The notes under the pieces are model-generated. The model worked only from the letters and a program-made list of their open reading frames with translations. It was not told the DNA's origin and made no database searches. This document shows positions 26,358 through 47,990 of a stretch of 64,000 nucleotides of DNA, piece by piece; position 1 is the stretch's first letter, and each line of letters begins with the position of its first letter. Origin of the DNA: Raillietiella orientalis (Eukaryota); NCBI GenBank assembly GCA_036172245.1, contig JAYWIR010000019.1, positions 1,116,001 through 1,180,000 on the forward strand, in the 5' to 3' direction. Position numbers and translations under genes: made by a program.

Positions 26358-29300
26358 CACCTGGGCTCGCCTGTCGGCGTCGAATCCGCGTCGCCAGTTG
26401 GAACGTCAACGGGCTGCGCGACGACGGCAACAGACGAGATACGGCCGACACACTGCGTGAGTTGGACCTGGCCCTGCTGCAGGAGATCCACGTGATCACC
26501 TCGGCAGACGTCCAGGTGATCGAGACGATCGCGGGGGGTCGACTGTATTGGCGATGCGGCACCCGCAACACCTGTGGGGTCGCGTTTTTCGTGAAGCCGG
26601 CCATCGACGCTGCCGTGAAGGGCGTACGCTTCGATGACGACGGTCGGGTCGGTCAGCTGACTCTCAGCTGGTCCGACTCGATCGAATTGATCGTCACGAA
26701 CATGTACGCCCCAAGCGGAAAAGGGGGATACAGCGACCGTACCAGGTTGCTGGAAACCCTGAAGCGCGACTGGCTGGCCGATACGAACGTGCGGAAGGCA
26801 CACCTGATAGCTGGGGACTTTAATCTCCGTCTGCTGTCAGGTGAGCCCGAAGCACAAGAACGCACGGCCAACGAGTTGTGCGCTGCCATGCGCACGCGCA
26901 ACTTGTTGGCGGACGCGGAGGGAATGGACCGCAGCATCGACCACTTTTTCCTGGATGTCGACCTGTGCTCGCGGGTCGGCAAACGGGGAAAAGTTGCGTC
27001 GACGCTGTCGGACCATTCCAGGTTAATCGCCGACGTTTTCCCGCGCGATAAAGGACCCCCGTCCAGGGTGTGGCGGCTGCCTGGGGACTGGACGCGGTTC
27101 TCAGGTGCGAAGGAACACCTTCGCGAATTCCTAAGAGGCGTCACTTTCCGCAGTCTCAAAGATTGGGACCTCTTCAAGGCCTCGGTCCGCGAGTTCTGCG
27201 AGGAGTTCCCCCTGCACCGCCTGCCCCCCGGATTTGGGGAGGGGGTTCGGAACCATACGGCCTATTTACAGGCCCGCCGGTACGAGAGGACCCCCAATGT
27301 CCGTCGCCTGGCAGAGTACCGAGCCGGGGCCGAACGTCAAGCCTGGCAATCCGGATCGGCCAGCTTGCTGGACGACCAGGGCCGGGAGCACTCGGCTCCG
27401 GCTAGAATACGGCACCTCGTGCGGCGTTTTTATTCCTCCCTTTACGCCAGGGCGCCCCCGGACCAAGATGCCTCTCGGCGCTTGCTTCCGAACGGTGCCC
27501 CGGCAATAGGGGAGGAGGAGAAGGAAAGTCTCGACGAGCCTTTTACCACCGGCGAAATTCTCGCCGGTATCAAAAGGCTCAAGAGGCGGAAAGCACCAGG
27601 GGAGGACGGCCTGCCTGCGGAGTTTTTTCAATGCTTCGCGGCAGAGTTGGCACCCCTGGTGCTTGAGTTGACAAGGCTGATCCGAGATGAAGGCGATGTA
27701 CCCGCCTCGTTTCGGTCAGCCAGAGTGAGGCTCCTTCCGAAAGGAGGAGACCTCAGGAAACTCAGCAACTGGCGTCCAATCACAATTGTGAACACGGACG
27801 CCAAGTTGATCGCCGGACTGTGGGCTTCGCGTCTGGGGCAGGTGGCCAATTCCATAATTAGCCCGGAGCAGACTTACGCTGTTCCCGGGCGAAGTATGGA
27901 GGCCAACCTCTTCTTCGCGAGCACATGGTTTCATGTGCAGAGTAGTCAAGAAAAGGAAGAGGGAAGGATTGGCAGCCCCGCTTTGGGAGCGTCAGCCGGG
28001 CAGGGACAGGACTCCCAGGTGGGGAAGGGAAGCCCTAGCGATCTCAGTCGATCTGCACAAAGCGTTTGACTGCGTGGACCAGGATCTCCTGCTGGAGCTC
28101 CTGGGACGCATGGGCTTCCCTCCCTCCCTACTGACCTACCTGCGCTCTTGCTGGCGCAGCGCGCTGATCAATATCTCTTTCAGAGGTCAAATGGCGTACG
28201 GCGTGCTGGTACGGCGGGGCATACGGCAGGGCGACAGCCTCAGTCCCCTGCTCTTTAGCACCTACTTTGAGTTGGTGCTGAGAGCGTACAGGGTGACTTT
28301 GGCCCCCTTGCCGAACTCGTGCCCCGGCACGCCCGCCGTAGCAGCATACGCCGACGATCTTTTGCTTCTGTTGCCGATGTCCACCCCGGCGAAGGCGGTC
28401 GAGGATTTCTTCGATCTGCTTAGCCGCGGGACCGGACTTACGGTGAACAGGGCGAAGTCGACGGTGGTTCCAGTCGGTGCGGTGTGGGTTGGGCAGCAGG
28501 ACTGGGTCCGCTTGGGGATCCCCACGGCGAGGTGCTTGAAGTACCTTGGTGTGCCGTTGGGGGACTACTCCCCTGCGGAAGCGTGGTCTGGCTGCCTCCA
28601 AAAAGTGGAAACGGCGATCGGCCCGTTCTTGGAAGACAAGTTTCTCCTTCCGGAACGGGCCGCGGTATGGAACGCGTTCGCGGCTCCTATCCTCCGCCCC
28701 CTGCTTTTTGTTTGCCCCGTCCCCAGAAAGTTGAAAAAACGGACGAAGGACCTCCTGAGAATTGCCCTTTGGGGAAGAGGGAGGCCCCGAGTCCCGTTGA
28801 AGGACTTGTGTGCTCCACGTCGGGATGGCGGTCTCTGCCTCTTGACGATGGAGCGAGTAGAGATTCAGCTGCGGTGGCGAACCCTCGCCATTGCAGCGAA
28901 GTTATGGAGCACCCCTTGGTGCGTTCCGGCCCGACTCCTTGCCAGCCGTGTATCCGGAACGGAGGGTCTCGCGTCCTATCTTCTGTGCCGTGGCAGGAAG
29001 ATCAAGAGATGCGGACTTCTCCTGGGACGCATGGCAACTCTGGCTAAGGAAAACGGCTGGATGGTATGCAGCCCCGCCAACTCCTCCGCATGGCTGGAGG
29101 AGACAGCTGGCACGTGGGCGAAGATTAATGAAAAGAATGAAGAGATGTGGAACTGCCTGCGACGCGGCGCCTATTCCCGCTGCACTCTGCGGAAGATACT
29201 CCAGTGTCCCGCGAGAAGCACGTGGGCAGAGACAACCCCCCTAGCTACGGCGATGCCCTTCCTGAGGAGGGCGCTCTCCAGCAGCCGCAAGCCTAGGTGG

Positions 29301-29945
29301 CAAGTCTCCTGCCGCATCGCAGGCAAGGAGAAGTTGATCAACGGCTGGTCCACGGGTGAACTGGCGGACGCCAGTACCCCTACTGTCCAGCCGAGAGGAC
29401 TCCAGAGATGGGGTGAGCTACTCGGCATCCAGCCGGATGACCTGAAGTGGCCCCCGGTATTAATTGGTTCTAGGATCCTCCCCCTAAAGTGGCAGGAGTC
29501 GGCGCTTCTGTTGTTGCATTGGGGTCTACCCTGCAACGCACGCCGCCACCACTGGACCAGGGGTCGAGTAGATCCTACCTGCATCAGGTGTGGGGAACGG
29601 GAAACCCTCCCCCACCTCCTTGTTGATTGTGCTGCCATCCGACCCCTGTGGGAACGTCTTCGTGCCTCCCTACGGATCCAGGAGGGCAGCCAGCCCAGAG
29701 ACGTTTTTCGGCTTCAGTTCGTGCATGATGCTCTGCGTCCAGCCGCTACCCTGGCTGCACTTTGCTGCGTACGCGGGATTGTGACGTGCTGGAGCAACGT
29801 CAGAAGACCGAGCCACGACAGGGATGCCGTCGTACTTGCAGTCCGCTACCTGCGGATTGTGACCAGATGGCCCCACCCGGGAATTATACGGACGGACCTC
29901 GAGGGCATCCTGCGAAGGATGGACCCTCCTCCCAGTGATCAGTGA
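26357..29945 (+). pseudogene. LINE B ORF2 (AP endonuclease, RT, CCHC), AUG-less start, one +1 indel at ~28030
   Basis: APE motifs WNVNG, LQEIH, YAP, GDFN, SIDH and SDH. RT motifs KAPGEDGL, NWRPIT, EQTYAVPGRS, DLHKAFD, QGDSLSP and YADD. Confidence 0.9.
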
Positions 29946-30151
29946 TCCCTCCCCAACCCCCCCAAATCTTTTTTTTTTTATGTTTTATTTTTCTTTTTGT
30001 TTTTTCCCCCACCCCCTTCCGCTGCCGAAGAGAGTCGCGCCTGTCTGCGTACCGGCGACCCGGCAGGTCCAGTTGAGTTGGCCGTAGTGGGGCCTCGTAC
30101 CACGAATCAAAGAGAATTTTTAATAAACGCCCCGGCGTGACCAGGTGGCAA

Positions 30152-31995
30152 CCAGCAACTTGGCGTCCGGATTCACTATTGTGATGGGACGCCAGTTGTT
30201 CATGCTCCTCAGATCTCCTCCCTTAGGGAGGAGCCGCACCTTTGCCGAACGAAACGAGGCGGGAACGTCACCTGTTTTGCGTATCAGCAAGGTGAGTTGC
30301 TGTACCAGGGGGGTAAGCTCAGCCGCGAAAGTTCGATAAAACTCCGCGGGCAGGCCGTCCTCCCCTGGAGCCTTTCGCCTCTTGAGCTTTCCGATGGCCG
30401 AGAGGATCTCGTCCATCGTGAAAGGCTCGTCGAGGGTCTTTCTCTGCTCCTTCCCGATCGCTGGAGCGCCTTCCGGAAGCAGGAGTCGTGAGACGTTCCT
30501 CTCCGGAGGTGCCCTGGCATACAGGGAGGAGTAGTAACTCCGCAGCAGGCCGCGGATTTGGGCAGGTGCCGAGTGCTCCTGGCCCTGATCGTCCAGTAAG
30601 CTGGCCGATCCGGACTGCCAGGCTTGCCTCTCGGCTCCCGCTTTGTATTCCGCCAGCCTGCGGATGTCGGGGGTCCTGGCGTAACGACGGGCCTGCAGGT
30701 GGGCTCGTTCGTTACGGACCCCGGTCCCAAAACCCGTGGGTAGGCGGTGCAGAGGGAACTGGTCGCAGAACTCCTGGACCGACCGCTTGAAGCGGTTCCA
30801 ATCCTGGAGTGTCCGCAGCCTGAAGCTCCGTATGAACGTGCGGAGATGTTCCGCCGCGTCCGGGAGCTTCAGCCAGTCCCCTGGGAGACGCCACGCTGAC
30901 GAGGGGGGGCCCCTGTCACGCGGATGGATCTCGAGGACACGCGGGCGATGGTCGGACAGCTCGCACGGTAACTTGCCGCGCCTGCCCACGCGAGGGCACA
31001 GGTGCTCGTCAAGAAACACGTGGTCAATGCTGTCTTCCATCCCCGGTGCACTGGCCAACAGATTACAGGTGTGCACCGCCTTGCACACCTCGTTGACCAG
31101 GTCACGCTCGGGATTCTGCTCATCTGGTTTCAGGCGAACGTTGAAATCGCCTGCAACCAGATGGGCATTCCGCACGCCTGCTTCGGTCAGCCAGTCTCGC
31201 CGGAGGGCAAGGAAAAACTCTTTCCTCGCCCTCCTGTTCATCAGGTCCTTGCCGCTCGGTGCGAACACGTTCGTGACGATCAGATCGATCGAGTCGGACC
31301 ACCTGAGAGTCAGCTGGCCGACACGACCGTGATCGTCGAACCGCACGCCCCGAGCCGCGGCCTCGACGGCTGGCCGAAGCAGGTAGGCGACACCGCAACT
31401 TTTCGCTCTCCCACACCGGTACCATAGCCGCCCTCCGGAGATCCGTTCGATCTCTTGCGCTTGTTCTGCAGAGATCACGTGGATCTCCTGCAGCAGCGCA
31501 AGGTCGTAGGACTCCCGAAGGGCGGCCATGTCTCGTCTCCTGCCGGCGTCTGTCATGCCGTTCACGTTCCAAACGGCGATGCGCAGACGACGGCGGGAGG
31601 AGATTCCCGGCATTACTGCTGGGAAGATTAAGGTGTGGGGGAGCCCTCCTCTTGCGAGGCGGGCGGGATGTCCATGGGGGTTTCGGCCTTCTCAGGCACC
31701 TGAGGCACCTGTTCGGCCTCCACCCCCTCCATCCCCTCCGTGTCCGCGCGTGGGAGTCTCTCGGGCGACGGGTCCCGAGAGTTTCCCACGCTCATGGCAC
31801 CCTCGCTTGCGGAAGCCATCTCTTCCCCTTCGACGGGGGAGACGAGCTTCCTTGGCTTTGTGGACTTACGTCCAGCCTTCTTGCGCGGTGCCGTGGAAAC
31901 GGAGGCTGCGCTTCCGGCCTCCACCTCGGGGTCGGAAGTGGGGGACTCCTGAGGGGAGGCCGGACGCCTTACGGCCTTCTTGCCAGCCTTAAAGG
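30152..31995 (-). mobile_element. LINE X, downstream part: ORF1 C-terminus plus ORF2 APE and RT N-part (31613-30152)
   Basis: ORF1 tail KKAVRRPASPQES... continues the ORF1 broken at 37661; an uninterrupted homolog lies at 44440-44500. TAATG overlap at 31615-31611. ORF2 is cut after DAKLL. Confidence 0.85.
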
Positions 31996-32207
31996 TTTAC
32001 ACCCGGGTACGCCCGGGGCGTTTATTTTTAAAAAACTCTACATCCGCGGTACAAGGCCCCGCTCACGGCCATATGCACTGGACCTGCCGGGACGCCGGGA
32101 CGCAGCCCAGCGTAGCGTTCCTCAGCAGCGAAGGGGGATGGGGATAAAACAAAAAGAAAAATAAAAAAAATAAACAGACAAAAAGAAGTTGGAGGGCAGG
32201 GAAGGGA

Positions 32208-35200
32208 TCACTGAACGCTGTGAGGAGGGCCCATCCGTTGAAGGAAGCCCTCGAGGTCCGTCCGTATATTCCCCAGTTGGGGCCATCCGGCAGCTCTCCG
32301 CATGAAGCGTTGGGCGTATGGGATGACATCCCTCGCGTGTGGACCCACTCCTTCGTTATTGGCGTCGCTCCATGCCGCCACGATGCCACGGACACAGCAC
32401 AAGGCTGCGATGGCTGCGGCTGGCTGCAGTGCGTCCTTCACGAAGAGGGGCCGAAGAACGTCTCTGGGGGTGCTGCTCGTAGGGAGCCCTAGGGTCGCCC
32501 CGAACCGTTCCCAGAGGGGTCGGATGGCAGCACAGTCCACAATAAGGTGGGAGAGCGATTCCCGCTCTCCGCACCTGACACACTCAGGATCCACAGTTCC
32601 CCTTGTCCAGTGGAAGCGGCGTGCGTTGCAGGGTAATCCCCAGTGCAGCAGTAGCAACGCCGACTCTTGCCACTTAAGGGGCAGGATCCTGGATTCCTTT
32701 AGTACCGGGGGCCACTTCAGCACATCCGTAGGGATGGCGAGCAGCTCGCCCCATCTCATTAATCCACGCGGCTGGACGCTCGGGGTCGTGGCGTCCGCCA
32801 GTTCTCCTGTGGTCCAGCCGCTTAACATCTTCTCTCTGCCTGCGATATCGCAGGTGACTTGCCACCTCGGCTTCTGGCGATCCTGAAGCGCCCTCAGGAG
32901 GTAGGGCATCGCCGTAGCAAGGAGGGTCGTCAACGCCCACCTGCGACTCCGGGGAAATTCCAGTATTTCCCGCAGGATGCGGTTGGCGTATGGGCCGATT
33001 CGCAGGCAGTTCATGTGGTTTTCACTTCTCCGGTTCAGCTTAGCCCATGTGCCAGCAGACTCCTCCATCCAGGCGGAGGAGTTGGCGGGGCCACAAACCA
33101 TCCAACCGTTCGTCTTCCCCAAGGTTGCTATGCGTCCGAGCATAAGGCCGCATCTTCGGATCTTCCGGCCAGGGCACAGAAGAAACGACGCGAGTCCTTC
33201 GCATCGGGACACACGCCTGGCGAGGTGGCGGGCCGGAACGCACCAAGGGGTGCTCCACATCTTCGCTGCGATGGCGAGGGTTCGCCACCGCAGCTGGATT
33301 TCCCCGCGCTCCAGCGTCAGGAGGCCAAGGCCGCCGTCCCGACGCGGAGCGCACAAGTCCTGCAGAGGGACTCGGGGCCTCCCCTTGCCCCAAAGGGCGA
33401 TGCGGAGGAGGTCCTTCGTCCTCTTTTTAACTACTCTTGGGGCGGGGCAAACAAAAAGCAAGGGGCGGAGGATGGGGGCCGCGAAGGCGTTCCAAACCGC
33501 GGCCCGTCCCGGCAAGTGAAACTTGCCTTCCAGGAACGGGCCGATCGCCGTCTCAACTTTTTGAAGACAGCTGGACCACGCTTCCGCAGGGGAGTAGTCA
33601 CCCAACGGCACACCAAGGTACCTGAGGCACCTCGCCGTGGGGATCCCCAGACGGACCCAGTCCTGCTGCCCTGCCCACGCCGCACCTACTGGCACCACCG
33701 ACGACTTCGCCCTGTTGACCTGCAGTCCGGTCCCACGGCTGAGCAGATCGAAGAAGTCTCCGACCGCCTTCGCCGGGGTGGACATAGGTAACAGGAGCAG
33801 AAGGTCGTCGGCATAGGCTGCTACGGCGGCCGTGCCGGGACACGAGCTAGGCAAGGAGGCCAAAGTCACCCTGTAGGCTCTCAGCACCAACTCAAAGTAG
33901 GTGCTGAAGAGCAGGGGACTCAGGCTATCTCCCTGCCTGATGCCCCGCCGCACCGGCACGCCATGCACCTTCTGACTGCTGAAAGAGACGGAAATTATGG
34001 CATGGCGCCAGCAGGAGCGCAGGTAGTTGATCAAGGAGGGTGGGAAGCCCATGCGACCCAGGAGCTCCAATAAAAGCCCCCGGTCAACACAGTCGAACGC
34101 CTTATGGAGATCGACTGCGAGCGCTAAGCCCCCTTCCCCGCCCGGGAGTCCATTCCCTGCCCTTCTGGCGGCCCCAAAGTGGGGTTGCCGATTTTTCCTT
34201 TCCCTTCCTTTTGACACCTCTGCGCGTGCATCCACGTGCTCGCGAAGAAGAGGTTGGCATCCATACTTCGCCCGGGAACAGCATATGTCTGCTCCGGGAT
34301 AATAATGGATTCTGCCACCTGCCCCAGACGCGAAGCCCATAGCCCGGCAACCAACTTGGCGTCCGTATTCACAATCGTGATCGGACGCCAGTTGTTCAAA
34401 TTCCTAAGGTCTCCCCCTTTCGGAAGGAGCCTCACTCTGGCTGACCGAAACGAGGCGGGAACATCGCCTACGTCTCGGATCAGCCTTGTCAGCTGAAGCA
34501 GCAGGGGTGCCAGCTCTTCCGCGAAGCTCTGATAGAACTCCGCGGGCAAGCCGTCTTCCCCTGGAGCTTTCCACCTCTTGAGCCTTTTGATACCGGCGAG
34601 AATTTCGCCGGTGGTAAAAGGCTCATCGAGGCTTAACGACTCCTCCTCCCCTATTGCCGGGGCACCATCCGGAAGCAAGAGCCGAGAGACAGCTTGATCC
34701 GGGGGCGCCCTGGCGTAAAGGGAGGAATAATAACTCCACACGAGATGCCGTACCGACGCCGGGGACGAACATTCCCGGCCCTGGTCGTCCAGCAAGCTGG
34801 CCGACCCGGATTGCCAGGCTTGGCGTTCGGCCCCGGCGCGGTACTCGGCCAGGCGACGGACATTAGGGGTTCGTTCGTACCTACGGGCCTGTAAATAGGC
34901 CCGATGGTTGCGAGGACCCTCGCCGAATCCGGAGGGCAGGCGGTCCAGGGGGAACTGCTCGCAGAATTCCCGGACCGATTCCTTAAAAAGGTCCCAGTCT
35001 TGGAGATTCCGGAGCGTGACGCCTCTCAGGTATTCGCGAAGGTGTTCCTTCGCACCTGAGAGTCGCGTCCAGTCCCCCGGCAGACGCCAGTCTCTGGATG
35101 GCGGTCCTTTGTCGCGAGGCCGCATCTCGAAAATTAACCGGGAATGGTCCGACAACGTTGACGCAACCCTCCCCCGTTTGCCGACCCGTGAACACAGGTC

Positions 35201-35803
35201 AGCGTCGAGGAAGACGTGGTCGATGCTGCGGACCATTCCCCTCTCACCCGCGAACAAGTTGCGCGCACGCATGGCGGCGCACAACTCGTTCATCGCGTTC
35301 ACCTGTGTTTCCGGCTCACCTGTTAGCAGGCGGAGATTGAAATCTCCCGCTATCAGGTGAGCCTTCCGCACGCTCGTGTTCGCCAGCCAGTCGCGCTTCA
35401 AGGATTCAAGCAGCCTGGTACGGTTGCTGTATCCCTTTTGACCGGTTGGGGCGTACACATTCGTGACGATCAGATCGATCGAGTCCGACCAGCCGAGAGT
35501 AAGCTGACCGACCCGACCGTCGTCATCGAAGCGCACGCCCTTCACGGCAGCGTCGATGGCCGGCTTCACGAAGAACGCGACCCCGCAGGTGTTGCGGATG
35601 CCGCATTGCCAGTACAGCCGACCCCCCGCGATCGTCTCGATATCCTGGACGTCTGCCGCGGTGATCACGTGGATCTCCTGCAACAGGGCCAGGTCGAACT
35701 CCCGCAGGGTGTCGGCTGTATCTCGCCTGTTACCGTCGTCGCGCAGCCCGTTGACATTCCAACAGGCCGCGCGAATCCGACGGCGACTGGCGAGCCCAGG
35801 TGT
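32208..35803 (-). pseudogene. LINE Y ORF2 (APE-RT-CCHC), AUG-less start, one -1 indel at ~34130
   Basis: ORF-track pieces 35683-34124 and 34340-32208 carry all APE and RT motifs. The frame begins at ACA overlapping the ORF1 TAA. Confidence 0.9.
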
Positions 35804-37554
35804 TACTCCTGGGAAGATGGCAGTGCGGCGTCCGCCACCTGCTGGGGCGGGACGCTAGGTGTAGGAGGGGGGTCAGGTGCTGAAGGCACCTGGTCCCCCT
35901 CCTCCATCGGTGCCGGCGCGTCGGCCGGATCACCCGCAGGTGGAGTCGCGCCTACCTGTTCGCCCTCCTCCATGGGGGCGGGCTGTTCAGGGTCGGCGCC
36001 TGCAGGGGGGACTTCACCCCCCTGTTCACCCTCCTCCATGGGGGTGGCCGCATCGACGGCTTCCGAGCGTGGGAATTCCTCCTCCGAATTTCCCACGCTG
36101 GCGACGGCTTCCGTCTTCTCCTCCCCGCTGGTGGAGGGGAGGCGCCTCCTGAGCTTCTGGGACTTGCGTCCCGACTTCCTGGGGGGTGCCTCCGAGGAGG
36201 AGGATGTGCTTCCGGCCCCCAGGTCTAACTCACCTGTGGGGGCCTTCTTCGCCGGAGCCGGCCTTCGCACGGCCTTGCGCGAGGGGTTCTCACGCTCGGC
36301 CAGCGTGACCGCGAGCTCCTCCGCCGCCTGCGCGAACGCGGCGTCCGCGGCTTCGACCGCCGCTATATCGCGCGGCTCACCCTCTGTGTAAACAGAGGGT
36401 TCGCCGTCGCGAGCCTCGGGCGCAGCGGAAACGGCAAGGGGAGGATCGACGCTCCGGGTGGCAATCTCGGGAACGACGATTCGTTCCAGTGCCACCGTGC
36501 ACTCGCGCAAAGTTTTCGAGCGCCGACCGGGTTTTTTCGGCTTACCGGCCGTCTTGCGCTCTTTGCTCTCCGCGGGTGGGAGTTTCCTCGGCTTTCTGGC
36601 CTCTACAAGCTGCCATCCCTCTTCGGCTTCCACCGTTTCAGAAGGTTTATCCTCCGGCTTACGCGCCGGAGGTTGAGGTGTTGGCTGCTTGTGCTGGCCC
36701 TTTTCTACTTTAGGTCTAGAGACCTTTGAAGCACGTTTCCCCTGCGCTTTGTTCGCGGCAGGGGGAACCGGGGTGGGGCGTTTGGGACACACGCGCCGAA
36801 CGTGGCCCCGCTCCCCGCACAAATGGCATTGTATATTGGGACACCTTTTACGTAGGTGTCCCACGGTATCACAATGCCCGCAATACCGGGGCTTCCCTAC
36901 ATACCACAGGTCGACGTTTTCGTGCGCCACCTGTAGTTTGTGGGGAAGCCCACAATTCTCCCGTACGGTGACCCGCGCTGCAGCCTGCCCACCAAAAAGG
37001 CTATCGAAGCCGTCGAAAATGGAGGGTTTCGGCCACAGTGCGTGCACCTCACCGTACTTCCGTAATTCCTCACCAACCGCTGACCGCGTCATGCGGCTGG
37101 TGATGCCAGTCATGTGGACCACCACGGAGCGGTCCATAGATACTGGCAGGATCTTGCGGCCGTCTACGTTCAGCGGCGCATGGATAAGGCGGTGAGCCAA
37201 GGTGACATCTTTGCAGACCACCTCGACCCGCTGCCCGCCGCTGAGGACGGAGAGGCCGTCCAGATCCTTCTCTGTGACATTCGCGTCCTTCAACGCTTTG
37301 CTGAAGGCGCGCGCTGTCCGGCCGTCGAACAAGTTGCCTACCTGGTAGACAAGCGATGGCTTGTACCCGGAGGCGTTGTATGCGGCCATCTCCGCCATGG
37401 CTTCTGCGCTGGGCGCGGCCACCATGGCGCTCCATGTCCTCGGCGTGGCCGGGGATGATTCCGGGGCGGCTGCCCCTGCTCCAGTAGGCTGTGGGGGCGA
37501 ACTAGCCTCCCCCACTCCCACCTCCATCGCGGTGTCCTCTGGCGTCGTGGCCAT
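35803..37554 (-). CDS. LINE Y ORF1, 583 aa, two CCHC zinc knuckles, low-complexity acidic C-terminus
   Basis: Open from MATTPED to TAA; CGHCDTVGHLRKRC and CHLCGERGHVRRVC. Confidence 0.9.
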   Translation of the reverse strand: MATTPEDTAMEVGVGEASSPPQPTGAGAAAPESSPATPRTWSAMVAAPSAEAMAEMAAYNASGYKPSLVYQVGNLFDGRTARAFSKALKDANVTEKDLDGLSVLSGGQRVEVVCKDVTLAHRLIHAPLNVDGRKILPVSMDRSVVVHMTGITSRMTRSAVGEELRKYGEVHALWPKPSIFDGFDSLFGGQAAARVTVRENCGLPHKLQVAHENVDLWYVGKPRYCGHCDTVGHLRKRCPNIQCHLCGERGHVRRVCPKRPTPVPPAANKAQGKRASKVSRPKVEKGQHKQPTPQPPARKPEDKPSETVEAEEGWQLVEARKPRKLPPAESKERKTAGKPKKPGRRSKTLRECTVALERIVVPEIATRSVDPPLAVSAAPEARDGEPSVYTEGEPRDIAAVEAADAAFAQAAEELAVTLAERENPSRKAVRRPAPAKKAPTGELDLGAGSTSSSSEAPPRKSGRKSQKLRRRLPSTSGEEKTEAVASVGNSEEEFPRSEAVDAATPMEEGEQGGEVPPAGADPEQPAPMEEGEQVGATPPAGDPADAPAPMEEGDQVPSAPDPPPTPSVPPQQVADAALPSSQE

Positions 37555-37660
37555 TGGACACCGACGATGTACACAAAACACCACACAGAAGAAAAAGCGC
37601 TGTCCTACTACTCTTTGGGGAGTGAAGGAAAAACACGTCCTCCAACTGGCCGCGGGGGGG

Positions 37661-39062
37661 CTGGCTGCAACGAGGCTGCCAGCTCCTCCGCGGCTCGCGC
37701 GAAGGCTACGTCATCGATGGTGGTGTCGATGACGGACGCCGCCGCCGGCTCGCTCCTCTCGCTGTTGACTGTGTCAACAGAGGGGAGGTCGTCGGTAGCG
37801 GCGAGTTCTTTCCGGCAGCGTTCGGCAACATCGAGAACGCGTTCGACAACGACGCTGCACTCTTTAATTATCGCGCTACCCTGCTCTTTCTTCTTCTGTT
37901 CGTAGGCGATTTTCTTTTCCATCCTCCTCTCCTTCTTTGATTTTTTGGCCGTTGCCACTTGCCACCCAGTCTCATGGCCGGCTCCCTCAACTTTTCCGGC
38001 GTTGGTCGCCGGGGTCTCGGGTGCGGCCTGGGTCTTGGGCGCGGGTGGCACAGCCTTCGCGGCAGCTTTCGCCGCCAGCCTTTTCTGCAGAAGCCGGGCG
38101 CGTTTTTTAAGGTTTCTCTTGGAAACCACCCGCACTGCTGCTTTTGGGCACACCTCCCTCGTGGGGCCCATTGTGCCGCATGCTTGGCACTGCACGTTGG
38201 GACACCTCTTTTTGAGGTGGCCCGACGTATTGCAGAAGCCACAGTATTTCGGCTTCCCCACATACCAGAGGTCGACGGTTTCGCCTTCGACCACCAGTTT
38301 GTGGGGAAGAGTGCAGCCCTCCCGAACGGTCACGCGCGCAGCAGTGAGGCCGTGTTGCAGCCCCGTGTAGTCCTCGAAAGGACTTACTTTCGTCCACTGC
38401 GCGTGGACCGTTCCGAACTGTTCCAAAGCGGCGCGAACCTGTTCTTTGCGCATTCGCGCGGTGACGCCTAACAGGTGGACCACCATGCTGCGGTCCGCCG
38501 TAGTGGGGAGGAGCCTGCGCGTCTTCATCACAACGGGGGTTTTAAGCAGTCGTTGGGCCAGCTCTGCATGTTTGCAGATGACCTCAACGTACTGACCCCC
38601 GCTGCGGATGGTCATAGCTCTGAGCTCCTCCTCTTTCACATCGAGAGCGCGCATGCCCTTCGAGAAGGCGCGCGCGCTCTCTAAAGAATATAAATTTCCT
38701 ACCTTGTAGAACGATGAGGGGTTGTACCCCTCCTCTACATAGGCCGACAATTCCGCCGCGGCTGCAGGCGATGGCGCCGACACAACGGCGCTCCACGCCC
38801 GCGCTGCAGCGGGGACCGATTCTGTGGGGGCGGATGCCCCCACCTCCATCGCCTCTGGGGGCGACGTTGCCGCCGCCCCCTGGCTCTCCATCGGCTCTGG
38901 GGGCGGCGTTGCCGCTGCCCCCTGGCCATCCCTGGTGGTCGCGTCAGGCATCGCTGCCTGATCGACCACCGAACCACACGACGCTTGCACTGGGGGAGAC
39001 TTCCTGGCACGAGGAGCACCGAGAAAACACGTCCACCCTAGAGCGCACAAGGCGTTCGACTG
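37661..39062 (-). mobile_element. LINE X, 5' part: 5'UTR and ORF1 N-part (ATG 38951)
   Basis: MPDATTRDGQ...CGFCNTSGHLKKRC...ARAAEELAASLQP. Inr-like CAGTC (A at 39061) with GGACGT at +28. Confidence 0.85.
39029..39062 (-). promoter_or_regulatory. Putative internal Pol II promoter (Inr + DPE) of LINE X
   Basis: CA(+1)GTC at 39062-39058 and GGACGT at +28..+33 give canonical DPE spacing. The same GACGTGTT motif marks the 5' ends at ~37635, ~44265, ~45112 and ~57333. Confidence 0.6.
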
Positions 39063-41191
39063 TGTAGACCAGGAACTCCTCTTGGAGCTCCTGGGTCGCA
39101 TGGGCTTTCCACCCTCCCTGATTTCCTACCTGCGCTCTTGCTGGCGGAATGCGATAATTACCGTCTCTTTCAGCGGTCACAAGGTGCATGGCGTGCCGGT
39201 GCGGCGGCGCATAAGGCAGGGAGATATCCTCAGTCCCCTGCTCTTCAGCACCTACTTTGAGTTGGTGCTGAGAGCCTACAGGGTGACTTTGGCTTCATTG
39301 CCGAGCTCGTGCCCCGGCACGCCCGCCGTTGCAGCGTACGCCGACGAGCTTCTGCTCTTGTTGCCAATGTCCACCCCGGCAAAGGCGGTCGGAGACTTCT
39401 TCGATCTGCTCAGCCGCGGGACCGGACTGCAGGTTAACAGGGCGAAGTCGTCGGTTGTGCCAATAGGTGCGGCGTGGGCAGGGCAGCAGGACTGGGTCCG
39501 TCTGGGGATCCCCACGGGCAGGTGCTTCAAGTACCTTGGCGTTCCGTTGGGGGACTTCTGCGTTGCAGAAGCCTGGTCCGACCGTCTCCAAAAGGTGGAG
39601 TTGGCAATCGGCCCGTTCCGGAACGGCAAGTTTAACTTGCAGGAGCGGGCCGCCGTGTGGAACGCGTTCGCGGCCCCCCTCCTTCGCCCCTTACTTTTTG
39701 TTTGCCCCGCCCCTCCCATGATACAGAGACGGACCAAAGCCCTCTTGAGGACTGCCCTTTGGGGCACAGCGAGGTAGCGAGTCCGATTGAAAGACTTGTG
39801 CGCTCCACGCAGGGATGGTGGCTTGGGCCTCCTTACGTTGGAGCGCATCCAACTACAGACAACACTTTGAAAGTTAGCCCTTGCGGCTAGCTTATGGATG
39901 ACGCCATGGTGCGATCCCGCACGGCTCCTTGCCAGAAGAGCGACCGGTTGCGAAGGATTGTCCTCGATTCTTGTGGCCTACCAGCGCAGCCTCTCCAACT
40001 GTGGCCCCGATTTGCGCCAGTTGGTCGCCCTGATGAGGGAGAATACCTGGATCTCCTGCCTCCCCGCGAACTGCACTGCCTGGCTTCAGGAGTCAGCTTC
40101 CGCGTGGGCTAAGATCAACGGCACGAGCGAGGCGGAATACAACTGCCTACGACGAGGACCGTACGCTCGACAGCCGCTGCAGGATATTATCAACACGCCC
40201 CGGAAGTTTCTGTGGGTTTCTTTCAGCCCCCTTGCCCCCGTTCTGTCCTCCCTAAAAAACACTAGGAGCAGCAACGAGCGGGCATCGTGGGAAGTGTCCT
40301 GCCTCATCCGAGGCAGGAAAAAGCCTTTAAAGGCGTGGACGACTCGGGAGCTCACGGACGCTGCCACCCCGAGCGTCCTGCCTCACGGACTTGCGCGCTG
40401 GGGAGAGCTGCTCGCAATACCTCCGGAGGAGGTGAAGTGGCCCCCAGCGTGTTGGGATTGCGGCACACTCCCGTTGAAGTGGCAGGAGACGGCGTTGCTA
40501 TTTCTGCACTGGGGACTGTTAAGCAGAGCACGCCTGTCTCACTGGACACTGGGGAATGTGGATGCCCGCTGTGTCGAGTGCGGAGAAAGAGAAACCTTCC
40601 CGCATCTCACCCTCGAGTGTGTCGCCCTGGATGGACTCTGGAGTCGAATCGCCCCAATCCTCCATCTTCCAGTAGGCGACCCTAAGGAAATTTACCGTCG
40701 CCTATTTCTGCGTGACGGCCTGCGCCCCGCTGCGTCTCTAGCAGTCCTCTGCTGCGTGCGCGGCATTGTGCAAAGGTGGCACGCCAGAAGAAGAGGCCCA
40801 AGATGCAAAGACGCCATCCACTGGACGACGATCTCTTTAGAGACGGCGACAAGGTGGCGTCTACCTTTCACAATAAAAACCGAACTTGACTGCATCCTTA
40901 ACAGGATGCGGAGGACCGACCCAGGCGCCCAGTGATCCCTTCCCTGCCCCCCCTCCCCATATAACTGTTTCCCTCCCCGTTATCTCTCTTTTTGTTTGTT
41001 TTTGTTCTAGTTTTCTCTTCCCATGCGCCTCGGGAATGGACCTAACCGGTCTATGCACTGGCAACCGATACGTCGAGCAAGGTGGGAGAACCCAGTGTTT
41101 TCCCCACAGAAAACATCTTTTTAAAGACTTTATTATCTAATTTTTGTAGAAAATTAGAATAATAAATGCCCCGGCATATCCGGGTGGCAAA
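39045..41191 (+). mobile_element. 5'-truncated LINE W: RT C-half from HKAFD, zinc finger, 3'UTR and hairpin end
   Basis: HKAFDCVD, IRQGDILSPLLF, YADE and CVECGERETFPHLTLEC; internal stops near 39775-39890; ends AATAAATGCCCCGGCATATCCGGGTGGCAAA. Confidence 0.88.
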
Positions 41192-44100
41192 CTTCGGCTG
41201 CAGCCGAGCATTCCTGGCCAGCGTCATCGAGCAGACAAGCCGCTCCAGACTGCCAAACCTGGCGCTCGGCCCTGGCCTTATACTCCGCCAGACGCCGGAC
41301 GTCCGGGCATCGTGAAAAGGTACGCGCCTGCAGATAGGATCTGCTGTTCGCGACACCCTCCCCGAAGCCGCGGGGAAGCAGGTGCAAGGGGAACCGGCAG
41401 CAGAACTCGCGGACCGATCTTTTCAGATCGTCCCAGTCCTCGAGTTCACAGATGGCGAAGCCCCGGAGGTGTTGGCGGAGATGCTCCGCCGCCTCCGAAT
41501 TGCTAAGCCAGTCGGCCGGCAACCTCCAGACATTCATCGGAGGCCCTTTGCCAGGCGGGAGGAGCTCGAACTCCAGTCTAGGATGATCCGAAATCGCGGA
41601 CAGCAGGCGCCCTCTCCGACCTACTCGTGAGAGCAGGTGTTCATCGAGGAACGCATGGTCCGGCGATCTCTCCATCCCGGGCTCACCAGCAAGCAAGTTT
41701 TGCACGCGCACGGACGCGCATACCTCGCTCACCAGTTGCTTCTCCCTCAAGCGGCATCTCTCCTCTGTTAGCAGGTGGACGTTGAAGTCTCCTGCAAGGA
41801 GGTGCGCAACGTTAGGGCCGGAGTCAGCGAGCCAGCGGCTGCGCAGGCCACCCAGGAATGCAAGTCGCTGGGCGTAATGCCGGCCTCCGCTCGGCGCGTA
41901 GATGTTCGTAACGACCAGGTCGATCGATTCGGACCACTTGAGGACAAGTTGGCCCACACGATCTTCCTCGTCGAAACAAACGTTCCGCACCGCCTCCGCC
42001 ACCCTGCCTCGGACGAGGAACGCGACTCCGCACGTGTGCGCGGAGCCTTGCCGCCAGTGTAGCGTCCCGCCCGCGCGCTCTTCCAGATCCGATGCCTGCC
42101 GTAAGGAGATGCTATGTATCTCCTGCAGCAGCACCAGATCGAACGCGCGCAAAGCGTTGGCTGCCGTCCGCCTTTTGTCAGCATCACGTAGCCCGTTGAC
42201 ATTCCAACAGGCCACGCTGACGCGACGAGCGGACGCGAGTCCACGCATCACTGCTGCGGACATGACGGCGTGCTCCTTGCCCCGTCCGGCGAGAAGTCAG
42301 CTGGTAGGAGAGCGGATTGGGAAGCGGAATCGCTCCCGTTCGCCGCCACATCGCGCCCAGCTGAGTCCTGGGAGCCGAGGATCATCGCCTCGGTCTCCGT
42401 GCAGGAGCCGGAACCGCCTCCGGCAACAGGCTCGTGCTTTCGCACTTTAGCCCGGCGCGCTACCGGCTTACCCCGGGATGCGCGCTCCATTTGTTTGCAC
42501 TCGGACTCCACCTCGGAGTCCGAGTGCCTGGCGCGAGACTGGCGTTTTGCCAGTCTCTTTTTGTTTCGGCAGGTGGAGGCGTGCCCTGCCCGCGCGGGGG
42601 TCGTCGCAGTCGCCAACGCAGCTTCCGGAGCTTTGGCTTCCGCAGCCGCCCTCTCGCGCGAAGCGACGGAGACAGAGCACGCAGCCGTAGTGCGTACCTG
42701 GGTACGCACCTTCTTCGGCGTGCTTCTCTTTTGCCTCCCACCTACCTTAAGGATGGGGAATATTGAAGGGTCAACCTTCTTCTTCCCCTTTGTGGGCGTC
42801 CTGGAGACTCGAGTCCAGCCCGCGTCGGGGACGCCCTCCTGGGAGGCCGACGCCTCACGCAATTGTTTGGCCGGAGATGCCGACTCACGTTTCGCGCTCG
42901 CGGCGGGAGACGGCTCCGTCCCCGTTACGCACTGCACCTGCTCCTTAGCCGATGCGGGCGAAACGGCGGTTATTGCCGTCGTCCCGCGAGGCGCTATTGC
43001 AGCCTTCGCTGCTCGTGCGTTCGGCGTGGAAGACGTGATCTCCACCGCCGTAGGAGGAGACTGCCGTTCAGAGGCAGCTCCGGGGGTACCCGCGCACGGT
43101 TTCCCGTGTGCTCCGCTGGACGCGCAAGCGGACGCGGACGGTTCAGCAGCCTTGATTGAGTGCGTGCCCGCACTCTTAGGCTGCTTCGAAGGGGGCGATT
43201 TGCCCCCAGGGCGACGTGGCATCTTTCCCGTCTGCGCGGTTGTCTGGGATGGTGGCTTCCCTGAAGCAACCGCGTCCTTTTTCGCGGGACCTCCACTCGA
43301 AGATGCCCCGCCCTTCGCGCCCGATTTCTCCCGTGGCACAACGGGGGATCTTTTCGGCGCGGACGGGGTCGATTGTTGGCGGCTTTTCGCCTGCCGCTTT
43401 TTCTTCAGCTCGGCGCACTCTTTGATGGAGTGGCCGAGCTGTTTACAATAGCGGCAGTTGCGTGAAGGGCACGTCCACGGACGGTGGCCCTCTGCACCGC
43501 AAATGCCGCAAGCCGGTCGCTGACCGGCAAATTTCAGGTGGACGATCGCATCGCCCACCTGCAAGTGCGGAGGCATTTGCCTTCTATTCGCCATGGTGAC
43601 ACGCGCCATGGCAAGTCTGCTGTGGAGAGATGCAATCCTTTTGATCGGATTTTCTGCTCTCCACAGCGCGTGCACCGTGGCGAATGCACTTAGTGCAGCG
43701 ACGAGCACGCGATCGGGCGTGTCCACCTGGACGGCGGATAATCGGACCACGAACGACTGGTCCATGGCTGACGGGACGACCTCCTTTACGCGGATATTTA
43801 GCGGGGTGCGGAGAAGGCGCTGGACTAGGGATGCCTCTTTGCAGTGCACCTCCCAGTGTCCGAGCGCGTTAACCGGCATGACGGCCAGGAGGTCGTCCTG
43901 TCGGACCCCGACGCGCAAAAGCTCGTCCCACAAATTTTCTCCGACCCCGTCGGAGATAGAAGCACTCACCGGATAGCAGAGCGCAGGCTTGTAGCCATGG
44001 GCTGCATATGCCTGCAGCTCTGCTTCGTCGGGCGGTGCTCCGCTGGCTGCCGCCGCCTTGACGACGGCGGCGAAGCTTCTCGCCGGTGGCGAGACACAAG

Positions 44101-44272
44101 AATCAGAGGCGAACCGGACATCTGGAGTAGAGTCTCCACTGCCAGTAGCAGCCTTCACATCCATCTTTTGCTGCAGGGGCTCCGTGGACATCGCAGTGGA
44201 CGCACTCGGGCACACCACACACGAGAAGACGGAAAGGAATCACGCTCGAGGAGCAACACAGAACACGTCAGT
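41192..44272 (-). mobile_element. LINE Z (divergent family), 5' half: ORF1 44191-42248 intact, ORF2 APE 42248-41192 truncated
   Basis: CGICGAEGHRPWTC and CRYCKQLGHSIKEC; TGATG overlap at 42250-42246; WNVNG, QEIH, GDFN and SDH. Confidence 0.88.
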
Positions 44273-45081
44273 GCACCGTTGTCGTCGAGCGTATTCCCGA
44301 CAGCTGCGAAAAAGAACTCGCCGCTACCGACGACAACTTCTCTGTTGACTCTGTCAACAGCGAGGGGAGCGAGCCGGCGGCGGCGTCCGTCATCGACACC
44401 ACCATCGATGACGTAGCCTTCGCGCGAGCCGCGGAGGAACTGGCTGCCTCGTTGCAGCCAGAACCCTCCAAGGATGGCAAGAAGGCCGTAAGGCGTCCGG
44501 CCTCCCCTCAGGAGTCCCCTACTTCCGACCCCGAGGTGGAGGCCGGAAGCGCAGCCTCCGTTTCCACGGCACCCCGCAAGAAGGCTGGACGTAAGTCCAC
44601 AAAGCCGAGGGAGATCGTCTCCCCCGTCGAGGGGGAAGAGATGGCTTCCGCAAGCGAGGGTGCCATGAGCGTGGGAAACTCGCGGGAACCGTCGCCCGAG
44701 AGACTCCCACGTTCGGACACGGTGGGGATGGAGGGGGTGGAGGCCGAACAGGTGCCTTAGGTGCCTGAGAAGGCCGAAACCCCCATGGACATCCCTCCCG
44801 CCTCGCAAGAGGCGACCTCCCTCACACCTCCTGCAATGGATGCAACGGCCCCACCAGCTACAGTGATCCCATCCCGTGCCCTCCTAGTTTTTCTTTTCCT
44901 TTTGTTTTGTTTTTTGTTTTTCTTCCTTCTCCTTGCTGCCGTGGTGGACCGTACCGGTCTGCGAACCGGTGATCCGGAAGGCTCTGTGTTTCTTCGTGCG
45001 TGGCTGGTACAATGGTCTAGCCACTGCACGTCTTTGTTAAAGTTTATTAATTAATAAACGCCCCGGCGAAATCCGGGTGAA
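44270..45081 (+). mobile_element. X-family deletion derivative: ORF1 C-half fused to the last ~12 ORF2 codons and a complete 3'UTR
   Basis: Close match to 37660-37860 and 31630-31990, then LQWMQRPHQLQ*, an A-type 3'UTR, and the end AATAAACGCCCCGGCGAAATCCGGGTGAA. Confidence 0.8.
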
Positions 45082-47172
45082 AATCAAACGCCTTATGCGC
45101 TGGAAGGCGGACGTGTTTTCTCGGTGCTCCTCATGTTAGGAAGTCTCCCCTAGTGCAAGCGTCGTGTGGTTCGGTGGTCGATCAGGGAGCGATGCCTGAC
45201 GCGACAACCAGGGATGGCCAGAGGGCAGCGGCAACGCCGCCTTCAGTGGCGATGGAGAGCCAGGGGGCGGCGGCAACGTCGCCCCCAGAGGCAATGGAGG
45301 TGGGGGTATCCGTCCCCACAGAATCGGTCCCCGCTGCAGCGCGGGCGTGGAGAGCCGTTGTGTCGGTGCCATCGCCTGCAGCCGCGGCGGAATTGTCTGC
45401 CTACGTAGAAGAGGGGTATAACCCTTCACTTTTCTACAAGGTAGGCAATGTTTATTCTTTAGAGAGCGCGCGCGCCTTTTCGAAGGGCATGCGCGCTCTC
45501 TATGTGAAAGAGGAGGAGCTCAGCGCTATGACCATCCGCAGCGGGGGTCAGTACGTTGAGGTCATCTGCAAACAAGCAGAGCTGGCGCAACGACTGCTGA
45601 AAACCCCCGTTGTGATGGGGACGCGCAGGCTTCTCTTCACTACGGCGGACCGCAGCATGGTGGTCCACCTGTTGGGCGTGACCGCGCGAATGCGCAAAGA
45701 ACAGGTTCGCGCCGCTTTAGAACAGTTTGGAACGGTCCACGCGCAGTGTACGAAAGTTAGTCCTTTCTAGGACTACACGGGGCTGCAACACGGCCTCACG
45801 GCTGAGCGCGTGACCGTTCGGGAGGGCTGCACTCTTCCCCACAAACTGGTTGTCGATGGCGAAACCGTCGACCTATGGTATGTGGGGAAGCCGAAATACT
45901 TCGGCTTCTGCAATACGTCGGGCCACCTCAAAAGGAGGTGCCCCAACGTACAGTGACAACTATGCGGGACAATTGACCACACGAGCGGTTGGTGCTCCAG
46001 CTTCGGTTTCGGTTACTCGCACTAGTGGCGAAGTATTAGAGTAGCAGCTGATGCGAGCCTGCACGTCTTCTCGTCAAACAGGCACCGGCAAGGTGGGACT
46101 GTCTTCTTTCCTTGCGCTCCGTCGTAGCCGCCACGTCGCTCACTGCGGTTTGCAGCTCCGTAGAGTGGCAGATTTGATGAGGATGAACGTGGAATGGCTC
46201 TTCGCCGCGTTAACGGATCTGCATGGCTGCAGGAAACCGTTTACACGTGGACGAGGAACAACGAGAAACGCACCCAACAAGATCAAAGAGAATTGCTTGC
46301 CCCTAACGACCGCCTCGCGCTCCGGGAGATCCTGGAGAACCCCGAAAAACAAGCGTGGGCAAGGAAAACTTCCCTTAGCAGCAATGCTGTTTTCCCGCGT
46401 GGACCATCTGGACTGCAACACTGCGGCGGCATGATAAGTCGTTGCAGAAATCTCCGGCACGGAGAAAAAGTTCGGGAAATGGAAAACGGGATTCTCTGCA
46501 ATAATGCGTCCCGGACTACCACCCCTATTGGACTTTTGCGCTGGGACGAGCTGCTGGAAGTTCCGCCGGAACAACTGAAGTGGCCCCAGGTGCTGATGTA
46601 CACCTGCACTTTCCCCTTCAAATGGCAGGAGACGGAGCTACTGTTGCTGCATTGGGGACTCCCTTGCAACGCCAGCCAGCACCATTGAACCAGGGGAGCG
46701 GTGAACCCTAATTGTGTGAGGTGTGGAGAACAGGAGTCTCTCCCCCACCTCCTTATGGATTGCGTTGCTCTTCGGCCCCTTTGGAACCGCTTCGCCGCGG
46801 CAATCGGAATCCCCTGAGGCAACCCCAGAGATGCAATTAGGTCCCTCTTTGTTTGCGATGCCCTTCGGCCTGCGCCCTCGTTAGCAGCTTTGTGCAGCTT
46901 TCGCGGGATCGTCGCTGCTTGGAGCAAGGCAACTGGAGGACCACGCGATAAGGGTGCCGTCCAATGCACAGCTGCATTTATTAGGACGGCGACAGGATGG
47001 ACCCATCTGGATACAGCAATCAAAGAACAGCTTGCTAGCATCCTAGAGAGGATGTAACGGCCACGCAGCAGACTGTGATCCCTTCTCGTGCCCTCCAGAT
47101 CCTGTTTTTATATATATACTTTTATATTTGTTATATCTTTTTGTTTTGTCCCTGCCCCCTCTGCTGTCGTGG
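45082..47172 (+). mobile_element. Decayed X-family copy: 5'UTR and ORF1 N-part (to ~45980) joined to an A-like ORF2 C-terminus and partial 3'UTR
   Basis: Matches the reverse complement of 38200-39060. From ~46000 it reads GLSSFLAL...AWLQETV...HWGLPCN...CVRCGEQES, with the stop at 47076-47078. Confidence 0.8.
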
Positions 47173-47990
47173 TTAGCTACTAGTCGCCTCTTCTCGTCGT
47201 GTTGGAACCCGTTGACGTTCCAGGACGCCACAGCAACACGACCAGAAGACGCTGTTGCCTCCATCGCGGCTGGGAAAGCGAGGTCGTGGTGCTCGCCTCA
47301 CCCGGCGAGTGGGCAGTAAGCAGCACGACGGGCTGGAGGGCGCGGTCATCACCTCCCTCCACCGTGCTGCGCGTAATCGAGTGCTCCTCCCCGGTTGCAG
47401 AACCTGTTGGTTCCGGGGTCAGCACACGTCGTTCCGCCGCGAGTGTGCCACGCCTGAGGGTTTCTGCCCTGCGGGCGCCCGCTTCGGCGCGCGCAACGCG
47501 CCGTCCAGCGGCATTATCGGACGGAGTCTGATGCTCGCGCGCTCGGCGTGCGTTTGCTTCCGCCCGATCGCACCGGAATCGTCTTGTCGGCTTTCAGAGA
47601 GGCGCACTTGCACGCGTTGACGGCGCTGGCGTTTTCCTGTGCAGAAGGACCCACTGCGCGTGTTTTCCTATCCGCGCGACTGTTGTTTGCTTTAGAAGAC
47701 GTCAGGGATGGAGTTTGCGAAGCTTTCTTTGGAAATTTTTCTTTCCTCCTCTCCACAACCTTCCATTCGCCGTCACGATTTTTGGAGGCTTCCGTGACTT
47801 TTGTCGCGGAAACCTTCGGTGTTTTCGCTGCGGCTTCTAGAAGCGTTGCTTTCGTTACGCCTTTAAAAGGCGGTAACGTAGTCACCTTCTTGGCAGTCGG
47901 CAGATCGCTCCTCTCCTGCTGAGACGAAAACTGTGAGTCAGCCTCGCGCACGGGCAGTATCGCCGCCGCTGATCTAAAGGGAGGCACGAT
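47173..47990 (-). mobile_element. LINE fragment: ORF1 C-terminal region and APE start
   Basis: GEWKVVERRK basic ORF1 tail; MEATASSGRVAVASWNVNG at 47264. Confidence 0.7.

Follow-up and report, generated by a model that had tools for sequence, protein, structure and literature searches.

Within a 64,000-nt stretch of Raillietiella orientalis DNA (GenBank assembly GCA_036172245.1, contig JAYWIR010000019.1, forward-strand positions 1,116,001 to 1,180,000), referred to here as the window, two long interspersed elements (LINEs) of different families lie head to head and share the bases at their junction. One of them, X1, is a minus-strand copy of family X; the other, W, is a plus-strand copy of a related family. 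The first bases of X1 (its leader) are the antisense of the codons for motif A in the reverse transcriptase (RT) of W, and this overlap is real. The leader also stands at the free 5' end of an older second copy, X2. With moderate confidence, we favour the explanation that the leader is an inherited part of the X RNA and that, at X1, its complementarity guided the head-to-head joining to W. The features concerned are listed with their positions in the window; UTR stands for untranslated region, ORF for open reading frame, and DPE for downstream promoter element.

Shared stretch: 39045–39061, 17 nt, read on both strands; W RT motif A codons (A)HKAFD(C) on the plus strand, X1 leader positions +17 to +1 on the minus strand.
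DPE-like motif: 39028–39034, minus strand; GGACGTG at +28 to +34 of X1, within a 24-nt block (+28 to +51) that is identical in X1 and X2.
X1 5' UTR: 38952–39061, minus strand; 110 nt that begin with the predicted +1 (39061) and lead up to the ORF1a ATG (38951).
W: 39045–41193, plus strand; related-family LINE, 5'-truncated exactly at motif A, with an intact 3' end that adjoins V.
V: 41194–44230, minus strand; older LINE fragment (ORF1 and APE to about residue 370) into which the W 3' end is inserted.
upX2: 44224–45083, plus strand; 5'-truncated X copy without ORF2, with a complete 3' terminus and X2 directly after it.
X2: 45082–45985, plus strand; old X copy with a free leader, starting at +1 to +3, with the DPE-like motif at 45109–45115 and homology to X1 up to X position 905.

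The sequence of 39045–39062 is GCACAAGGCGTTCGACTG. On the plus strand, the frame from 39046 encodes HKAFDC and continues as RT to 40908 (Pfam RVT_1, E 5.9e-13). When W is aligned to three further RT copies from the window, its RT homology begins exactly at 39045, and the sequence upstream of this base is X 5' UTR in antisense. From the other side, the homology between X1 and X2 reaches 39059–39061, as the two are identical through +3 (39059) and also have the A at +1 in common. Direct reading and the RT alignment therefore bear out that the bases from 39045 onward serve as W coding sequence on one strand and as the X 5' end on the other. The original prediction gave the overlap as exactly 18 nt; its in-register position at motif A stands, and its length is corrected to 15–17 nt (39045 to 39059–39061).

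The likeness between leader and motif A extends beyond this junction. With up to 3 mismatches, the 18-mer has three matches in the window, all at RT motif A, against 0.05 expected. The 16-mer from the X2 leader, searched in the same way, has five against 0.54 expected, a number reached by 0 of 100 shuffles. These five are the 16-mer itself, the junction, and motif A in X1's own RT and in the RTs of two further LINEs, X' and Y; each RT match is antisense to the RT. As the antisense matches fall at motif A only and exceed expectation in this way, the likeness is not a product of chance. At X1's own motif A (24759 to 24744, minus strand), 14 of 18 positions match the leader complement. W is 77.7% identical to X1's own RT and is hence a different element.

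X2 shows the leader without W alongside, so that for both X 5' ends examined, X1 and X2, the view of the leader as a family trait holds. The second copy had been said to align without gaps, to start at the same +1 and to follow the 3' tail of another element directly. The alignment indeed has no gaps over 905 nt (92.5% identity), and X2 adjoins the complete 3' terminus of upX2 (...AATAAACGCCCCGGCGAAATCCGGGTGAAAA, followed by TC); only the start is less sharply fixed, at +1 to +3 (45082–45084), by analogy with five other LINE 3' termini. The junction between the upX2 3' terminus and the X2 5' terminus (45075–45090, plus strand) is exactly head-to-tail and fits an end-to-end template jump or telomere-like end addition. 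The R2 RT can pass from the end of one RNA template directly onto the 3' end of the next; Bibillo and Eickbush reportedly described such end-to-end template jumping in 2002, and U6/L1 chimeras were reportedly described by Buzdin in the same year. The upX2/X2 junction and a U4 copy 5' of a LINE ORF1 elsewhere in the window resemble these products, and both are known here from their junctions. As the X2 junction has the form of a template jump, it marks a true RNA 5' terminus. upX2 has lost ORF2 cleanly, in a gap that opens at the ORF1 stop codon and closes some 30 nt short of the ORF2 stop, with gag and the 3' UTR left; this copy could be a non-autonomous derivative or the outcome of a one-off deletion.

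The two X copies differ in age. In ORF1a they show 58 differences, distributed 10/13/35 over the three codon positions (p 6.5e-5), with a ratio of non-synonymous to synonymous substitution rates (dN/dS, omega) of 0.34; omega = 1 is rejected (p 1e-4), and dS is 0.15. In X2, 265 codons contain 2 stops, and a conserved Trp and a Cys of the CCHC motif are gone. When amino acid changes were polarised with Y, X' and X3 as outgroups, 13 were X2-derived, 4 were X1-derived, and 10 were uninformative. The four coding pieces of X1 (5109 nt) contain 0 in-frame stops and need one frame change, while simulated neutral decay leaves even the 1290-nt piece alone without a stop with P 0.04 at 7.5% divergence. 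X1 is thus the recent product of a lineage under selection, and X2 is old. As the older copy already carries the leader, the leader predates X1, and the junction at 39045 did not found the promoter. X2 is not a mere local duplication of this junction either: the 7.5% divergence, the selection signature and the boundary at the 3' terminus of another element all contradict this.

Both X copies have GGACGTG at +28, counted from 39061 and from 45082, which upholds the exact DPE spacing that had been proposed. The longer GGACGTGT at +28 to +35 matches the extended DPE consensus RGWCGTKY, derived from Drosophila LINEs, at 8 of 8 positions, and the free 5' end of X2 lies at most 2 nt from the predicted +1. 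In the LINEs Doc, F, G, I and jockey, this consensus lies around +29 to +36, as given in the relevant part of PMC1636488. X therefore resembles the Drosophila initiator (Inr) and DPE promoters described there in motif and in 5' end position, and an RNA start 27 nt upstream of GGACGTG with Inr/DPE promoter function is predicted. Unlike these LINEs, X is known from sequence; its RT is about 30% or less identical to named proteins and carries zf-RVT, so we do not assign it to the jockey clade. Between X1 and X2, 0 of 24 positions differ in the block +28 to +51, against 4 of 10 in the spacer (+18 to +27) and 3 of 17 in the leader (+1 to +17). The DPE block hence appears constrained and the leader does not. 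At all three leader positions where X2 departs from X1/W, the change is a third-position transition that is synonymous in the RT frame (our estimate of chance is (6/17)^3 = 0.04), which fits the junction bases being W's own version and not drifted copies.

The 14-mer GGACGTGTTTTYYC occurs exactly three times in the 64 kb, at the LINE 5' ends of X1, X2 and Y, and with 1 mismatch in Z. The leaders of Y, Z and X3 bear no relation to that of X in the part that precedes the shared DPE block, so the first 17 nt of X are a lineage-specific replacement; the 5' end of X3 is too diverged to align. In Y, the distance from the start down to GGACGTG is 20 nt and not 27 nt. When the initial 60 nt of each of X1, X2, Y, Z and X3 were aligned blindly and locally with all ORF2 sequence on both strands, nothing scored above shuffles. 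The antisense-leader idea thus does not extend to Y, Z and X3.

We propose the following course of events. The X RNA would start 27 nt upstream of the DPE-like GGACGTG, and its first 15–17 nt, the reverse complement of the HKAFD codons of the LINE superfamily, would be inherited from copy to copy through RNA. The 3' end of a full-length X minus-strand cDNA would then read as sense motif A and could pair with the antisense strand of any related RT, be it DNA or cDNA. Annealing at 39045–39061 would have joined X1 head-to-head and in register to W. Either the X1 cDNA annealed to a resident W and the intervening DNA was lost, or X and W RNAs served as templates for the extension of two DNA ends, both cDNAs annealed, and W was cut off at motif A. 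The leader itself most likely arose when an ancestral 5'-truncated X came to lie against an inverted RT and the start fixed by the DPE took in 17 nt of flank; probably, it was captured once from an inverted RT, earlier and at another locus.

Several properties of the junction agree with such a course. The 3' termini of X1 (22653) and W (41193) are intact, point outward and carry the terminal hairpin, and the junction falls within shared sequence, as in two-template or homology-guided joining. The perfect 17-nt duplex has a predicted energy of -24.7 kcal/mol with DNA parameters, against -12.9 kcal/mol for an X2-type leader on W. Twin priming was reportedly described by Ostertag and Kazazian in 2001. 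In its classical form it inverts part of one RNA, whereas here two families are joined, X1 being full length with its own RT, the homology of 15–17 nt is built into the leader, and there is no target-site duplication. Microhomology-mediated 5' attachment of L1, and chimeras of new cDNA with resident L1 accompanied by target deletion, are said to have been found by Zingler in 2005 and by Gilbert and Symer in 2002. As in those cases, a cDNA 3' end would have found complementary DNA near the target, and the match would have set the truncation point or deletion. The known L1 chimeras have partners in the same orientation, whereas the homology of X1 and W is antisense, so the product is head-to-head. 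For human L1, the part of PMC11702581 that bears on such junctions describes microhomology-mediated end joining at 5' junctions, as well as head-to-head insertions from two RNAs with junction microhomology, attributed to the joining of two RT-extended DNA ends. X1/W is like these insertions in having head-to-head segments with outward 3' ends, joined at shared sequence.

Some observations weigh against this explanation. There is no target-site duplication around X1 and W, as the flanks at 22652 (AT-rich DNA) and 41194 (element V) are unrelated; the explanation therefore has to include a two-end event or one or more large deletions. The upstream half of W and the downstream half of V are both absent from the window. 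LINE junctions are usually reported with 0–10 nt of homology, far below the 15–17 nt seen here. W seems to be older than X1, with 2 in-frame stops in 1863 nt against 0 in 5109 nt (our estimate, p ~0.07) and with YADE in place of YADD. The X 5' ends examined number two, and motif and spacing are what speaks for DPE/Inr function. The missing halves of W and V and the lack of a target-site duplication fit a deletion-associated or two-end event and do not separate the two variants; the stops in W weakly disfavour the same-event variant and favour a resident W.

The original prediction offered an origin of the promoter by an inversion that recruited antisense RT sequence. Taken for this very locus, an X ancestor without its first ~17 nt would have landed against antisense W, the DPE would have set the start 17 nt into W, and X2 would descend by a 17-nt 5' transduction. 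One event would then account for both the overlap and the X2 leader with no coincidence needed, antisense W does provide an initiator-like CAGTC at the right DPE distance, and the unrelated leaders of Y, Z and X3 make the first 17 nt of X a family-specific replacement. We nevertheless regard this as very unlikely. A founder locus must be at least as old as every copy with the transduced bases, and this one is not: X1 is young and X2, which bears the leader, is old and more decayed than X1. Neutral decay of X1 would have lasted for no less than half of the dS of 0.15, yet X1 shows 0 stops in 5109 coding nt, where the P of 0.04 given above is for 1290 nt alone. The minimum omega under this scenario, about 0.55–0.6, gives p 0.03–0.06 against the 29 of 56 changes observed to be non-synonymous. 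Neutral drift would also have scattered the three leader differences, which are all synonymous in the RT frame (p ~0.04, as estimated above), and no inversion was seen as a source of the promoter. Repair at the DNA level is unlikely to a lesser degree. By single-strand annealing or microhomology joining, the resident X1 leader and an inverted RT motif A would have been brought together, giving an inversion or deletion. The lack of a target-site duplication and the missing W 5' half and V 3' half would be expected from such an event, and the dense LINE nest with its two orientations offers inverted motif A copies within a few kb. On the other hand, the window contains no reciprocal junction, at which foreign DNA would follow an RT that ends at motif A; 17 nt is short for recombination between resident repeats; and the junction coincides with the extreme 5' end of a full-length copy, the place at which a cDNA 3' end is free during integration.

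The other idea put forward earlier was that the leader pairs with RT regions, as a guide for regulation or for joining into relatives. Joining into relatives survives as a mechanism, given the in-register X1/W junction; a leader kept for pairing with RT-coding RNA or cDNA (for regulation, docking on a partner's ORF2 mRNA or snap-back second-strand priming) we hold to be very improbable, and the analysis gave no support for it. The 17-mer of X1 does form predicted duplexes of -28.0 kcal/mol with the Y RT, -23.9 with X' and -16.0 with X1's own RT (RNA parameters), the ORF2-less upX2 would need RT in trans, and the leader variants remain compatible with the HKAFD codon set. Yet the leader, with 3 of 17 differences, evolves at about the neutral rate given by dS, while the DPE block is unchanged; pairing with X1's own RT, where 14 of 18 positions are identical, is the weakest, and the X2 leader pairs poorly (-10 to -17.6 kcal/mol). 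The fold of the 5' UTR is unremarkable (z +0.6 and +1.5), and the leaders of Y, Z and X3 have no antisense ORF2 match above shuffles. That the leader is a working device, through which X, especially ORF2-less forms like upX2, docks on a partner's ORF2 template to borrow its RT or primes the second strand on the cDNA of a relative, with X1/W as a fossil of such pairing, seems to us highly improbable. Hardly any weight goes to the possibility that the likeness is fortuitous or that the assembly is chimeric at a short word common to both sequences. The X2 leader scores 11.5 in the blind local alignment with all ORF2 sequence, within the range of the shuffles (median 10.5, 95th percentile 13), and among the pieces listed from an independent DNA sequencing run (share 0.24; one low-coverage Logan run with short contigs, from which no census was drawn) none is identical to the window across 39040–39047. 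Every non-self match of the X2 16-mer with up to 3 mismatches, however, lies at motif A in antisense, the junction is in register to the base, and modern assemblers would not be led astray by a word of just 17 nt. The same run also contains a variant X-leader contig (depth ~6) across 39040–39047, which has 3 differences and ends 61 letters on; it was not counted as a bridge or as a free 5' end. Normal RT copies in the run read through 39046: three further contigs among the pieces listed carry the usual upstream RT sequence and have a loose end before this position. This DNA run was the one listed as containing the sequence, and no RNA run was listed. An exact scan of JGI metagenome contigs with the 24-nt block of the X 5' UTR gave 0 matches.

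With its probably inherited, joining-guiding leader, X1/W is a variant of known LINE behaviour, combining 5' end capture with homology-guided head-to-head joining, and not a new kind of system. Successive unrelated 5' UTRs were reportedly described in primate L1 by Khan in 2006. As in such 5' UTR replacement or 5' transduction, one lineage gains a new 5' terminus and then inherits it; unlike there, just 17 nt are concerned, the donor is an antisense RT motif, and the capture event would be reconstructed from its product. The leader and its junction are probably a neat mechanistic curiosity. They provide a concrete case in which a few bases captured at a LINE 5' end may later decide how and where the element joins DNA, and promoter turnover, the attachment of 5' ends and head-to-head rearrangements of LINEs come together in one locus. 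Should leader-guided joining be frequent in this genome, it would offer a natural system for the resolution of LINE cDNA ends and for cluster growth by inverted junctions; should it have happened only this once, the locus is a well-documented curiosity.

X is an autonomous LINE. X1 extends from 39062 to 22653 on the minus strand and comprises the 5' UTR, ORF1a, ORF2 (APE and RT) and the 3' UTR, split by two nested insertions. Downstream of the 5' UTR listed above, its parts and the inserted elements are the following.

X1 ORF1a, N-terminal 430 codons: 37661–38951, minus strand; gag-like, with a CCHC knuckle and an open frame.
Y: 31997–37660, minus strand; nested LINE (ORF1b, APE and RT) in sense orientation within X1 ORF1a, with its own 3' hairpin end.
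X1 continuation: 30154–31996, minus strand; ORF1a C-terminus (stop TAA), ORF2 start (MPGISS..) and APE domain, frame open.
X': 24853–30153, plus strand; 5'-truncated Y-type LINE, antisense within X1 ORF2, about 70 nt upstream of X1 motif A.
X1 ORF2 RT half and 3' UTR: 22653–24830, minus strand; contains motif A and has the 3' end ..AATAAACGTCCCGGCGAACCGGGTTTCAA.

The end of X1 ORF1a runs through its TAA stop into the start of ORF2, collinear as in Y and X'. We had considered X as a gag-only element beside a separate element, "W-prime", and dropped this view because the X1 ORF1a end is collinear into that ORF2. The X1 3' end adjoins AT-rich non-LINE DNA. Compared with the uninterrupted upX2, the insertion of Y (37661/37660 and 31997/31996) caused neither a target-site duplication nor a deletion; Y has its own DPE-like block at 37640 to 37627. 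The order of APE then RT in ORF2 is that of a LINE without long terminal repeats (non-LTR). Y contains PF03372 (Exo_endo_phos, APE; E 4.7e-13) and PF00078 (E 5.6e-16), and the X1 ORF2 pieces share 64% and 45–67% amino acid identity with the Y domains. CCHC motifs are present in both gag-like ORF1a and ORF1b. A protein search with ORF1a found no relative at E <= 0.001, and an RT search gave one 65% match on a 2.9-kb contig, the others being at about 30% or lower; these matches threw no light on 5' ends.

At the start of ORF1a, both X copies have a 42-nt unit repeated twice (38844–38926, minus strand, and 45217–45299, plus strand), which gives a duplicated PPE.MES.GAAAT peptide. A frame change is needed in a purine-rich stretch about 30–120 nt upstream of motif A in Y (34127–34403, minus strand) and in X' (27858–28069, plus strand), and the site at which X' is inserted in X1 lies in the region homologous to this stretch. 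A conserved programmed frameshift was considered and dropped, as the shifts go in opposite directions; the stretch may be a hypervariable linker or an indel hotspot.

All these elements belong to a GC-rich nest of non-LTR retrotransposons in both orientations, which spans 22.6–62 kb of the window (mapped by self-BLAST and tblastn); the adjoining AT-rich DNA carries a PTB/IRS-type exon. This exon and a U4 copy within the nest mark the host as an animal; a search with the exon gave one weak match. Two modules are common to all LINE families of the nest, a type of 3' terminus and the 5' block found at full-length 5' ends. The 3' UTR ends with AATAAA, then a CCCGG..CCGGG hairpin, then GTGNNAA. W, X', upX2 and a mini-copy of about 47 nt are all 5'-truncated and end in the same AATAAA and hairpin terminus, as expected of LINEs. 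The mini-copy (57544–57590, plus strand) consists solely of T13, AAATAAA and the terminal hairpin and lies within an APE-coding fragment. Truncated from the 5' side to the extreme, it displays the minimal 3' module.

Z, a short gag-type element with AGACGTGTTTTCCC (57306–57365, minus strand; 5' end at about 57365), adjoins an inverted APE fragment (57352–58107, plus strand) that starts at about 57352–57355. Its predicted +1 lies 10–13 nt inside this fragment, which makes a second divergent head-to-head junction. The Z 16-mer has three matches in the window against 0.76 expected, none of them at APE sites of other elements, and we treat Z as an ordinary, slightly truncated nested insertion.

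Further elements were noted in and beside the nest. A full-length copy of the U4 small nuclear RNA (snRNA; Rfam RF00015, 83.9 bits) at 47940–48078 on the plus strand lies directly 5' of a LINE ORF1-like region, which has an ORF at 48442–49866 and extends to about 49900, an arrangement like that of template-switch snRNA/LINE chimeras. At the edge of the GC-rich nest, 16156–21443 on the minus strand holds a different retroelement with an R2/NeSL-like layout, a match to an N-terminal C2H2 finger and RVT_1 at E 7.9e-29. Within a LINE RT fragment, 61624–61936 is made up of a 25-nt unit repeated perfectly in tandem, with 12.5 copies and 100% matches.

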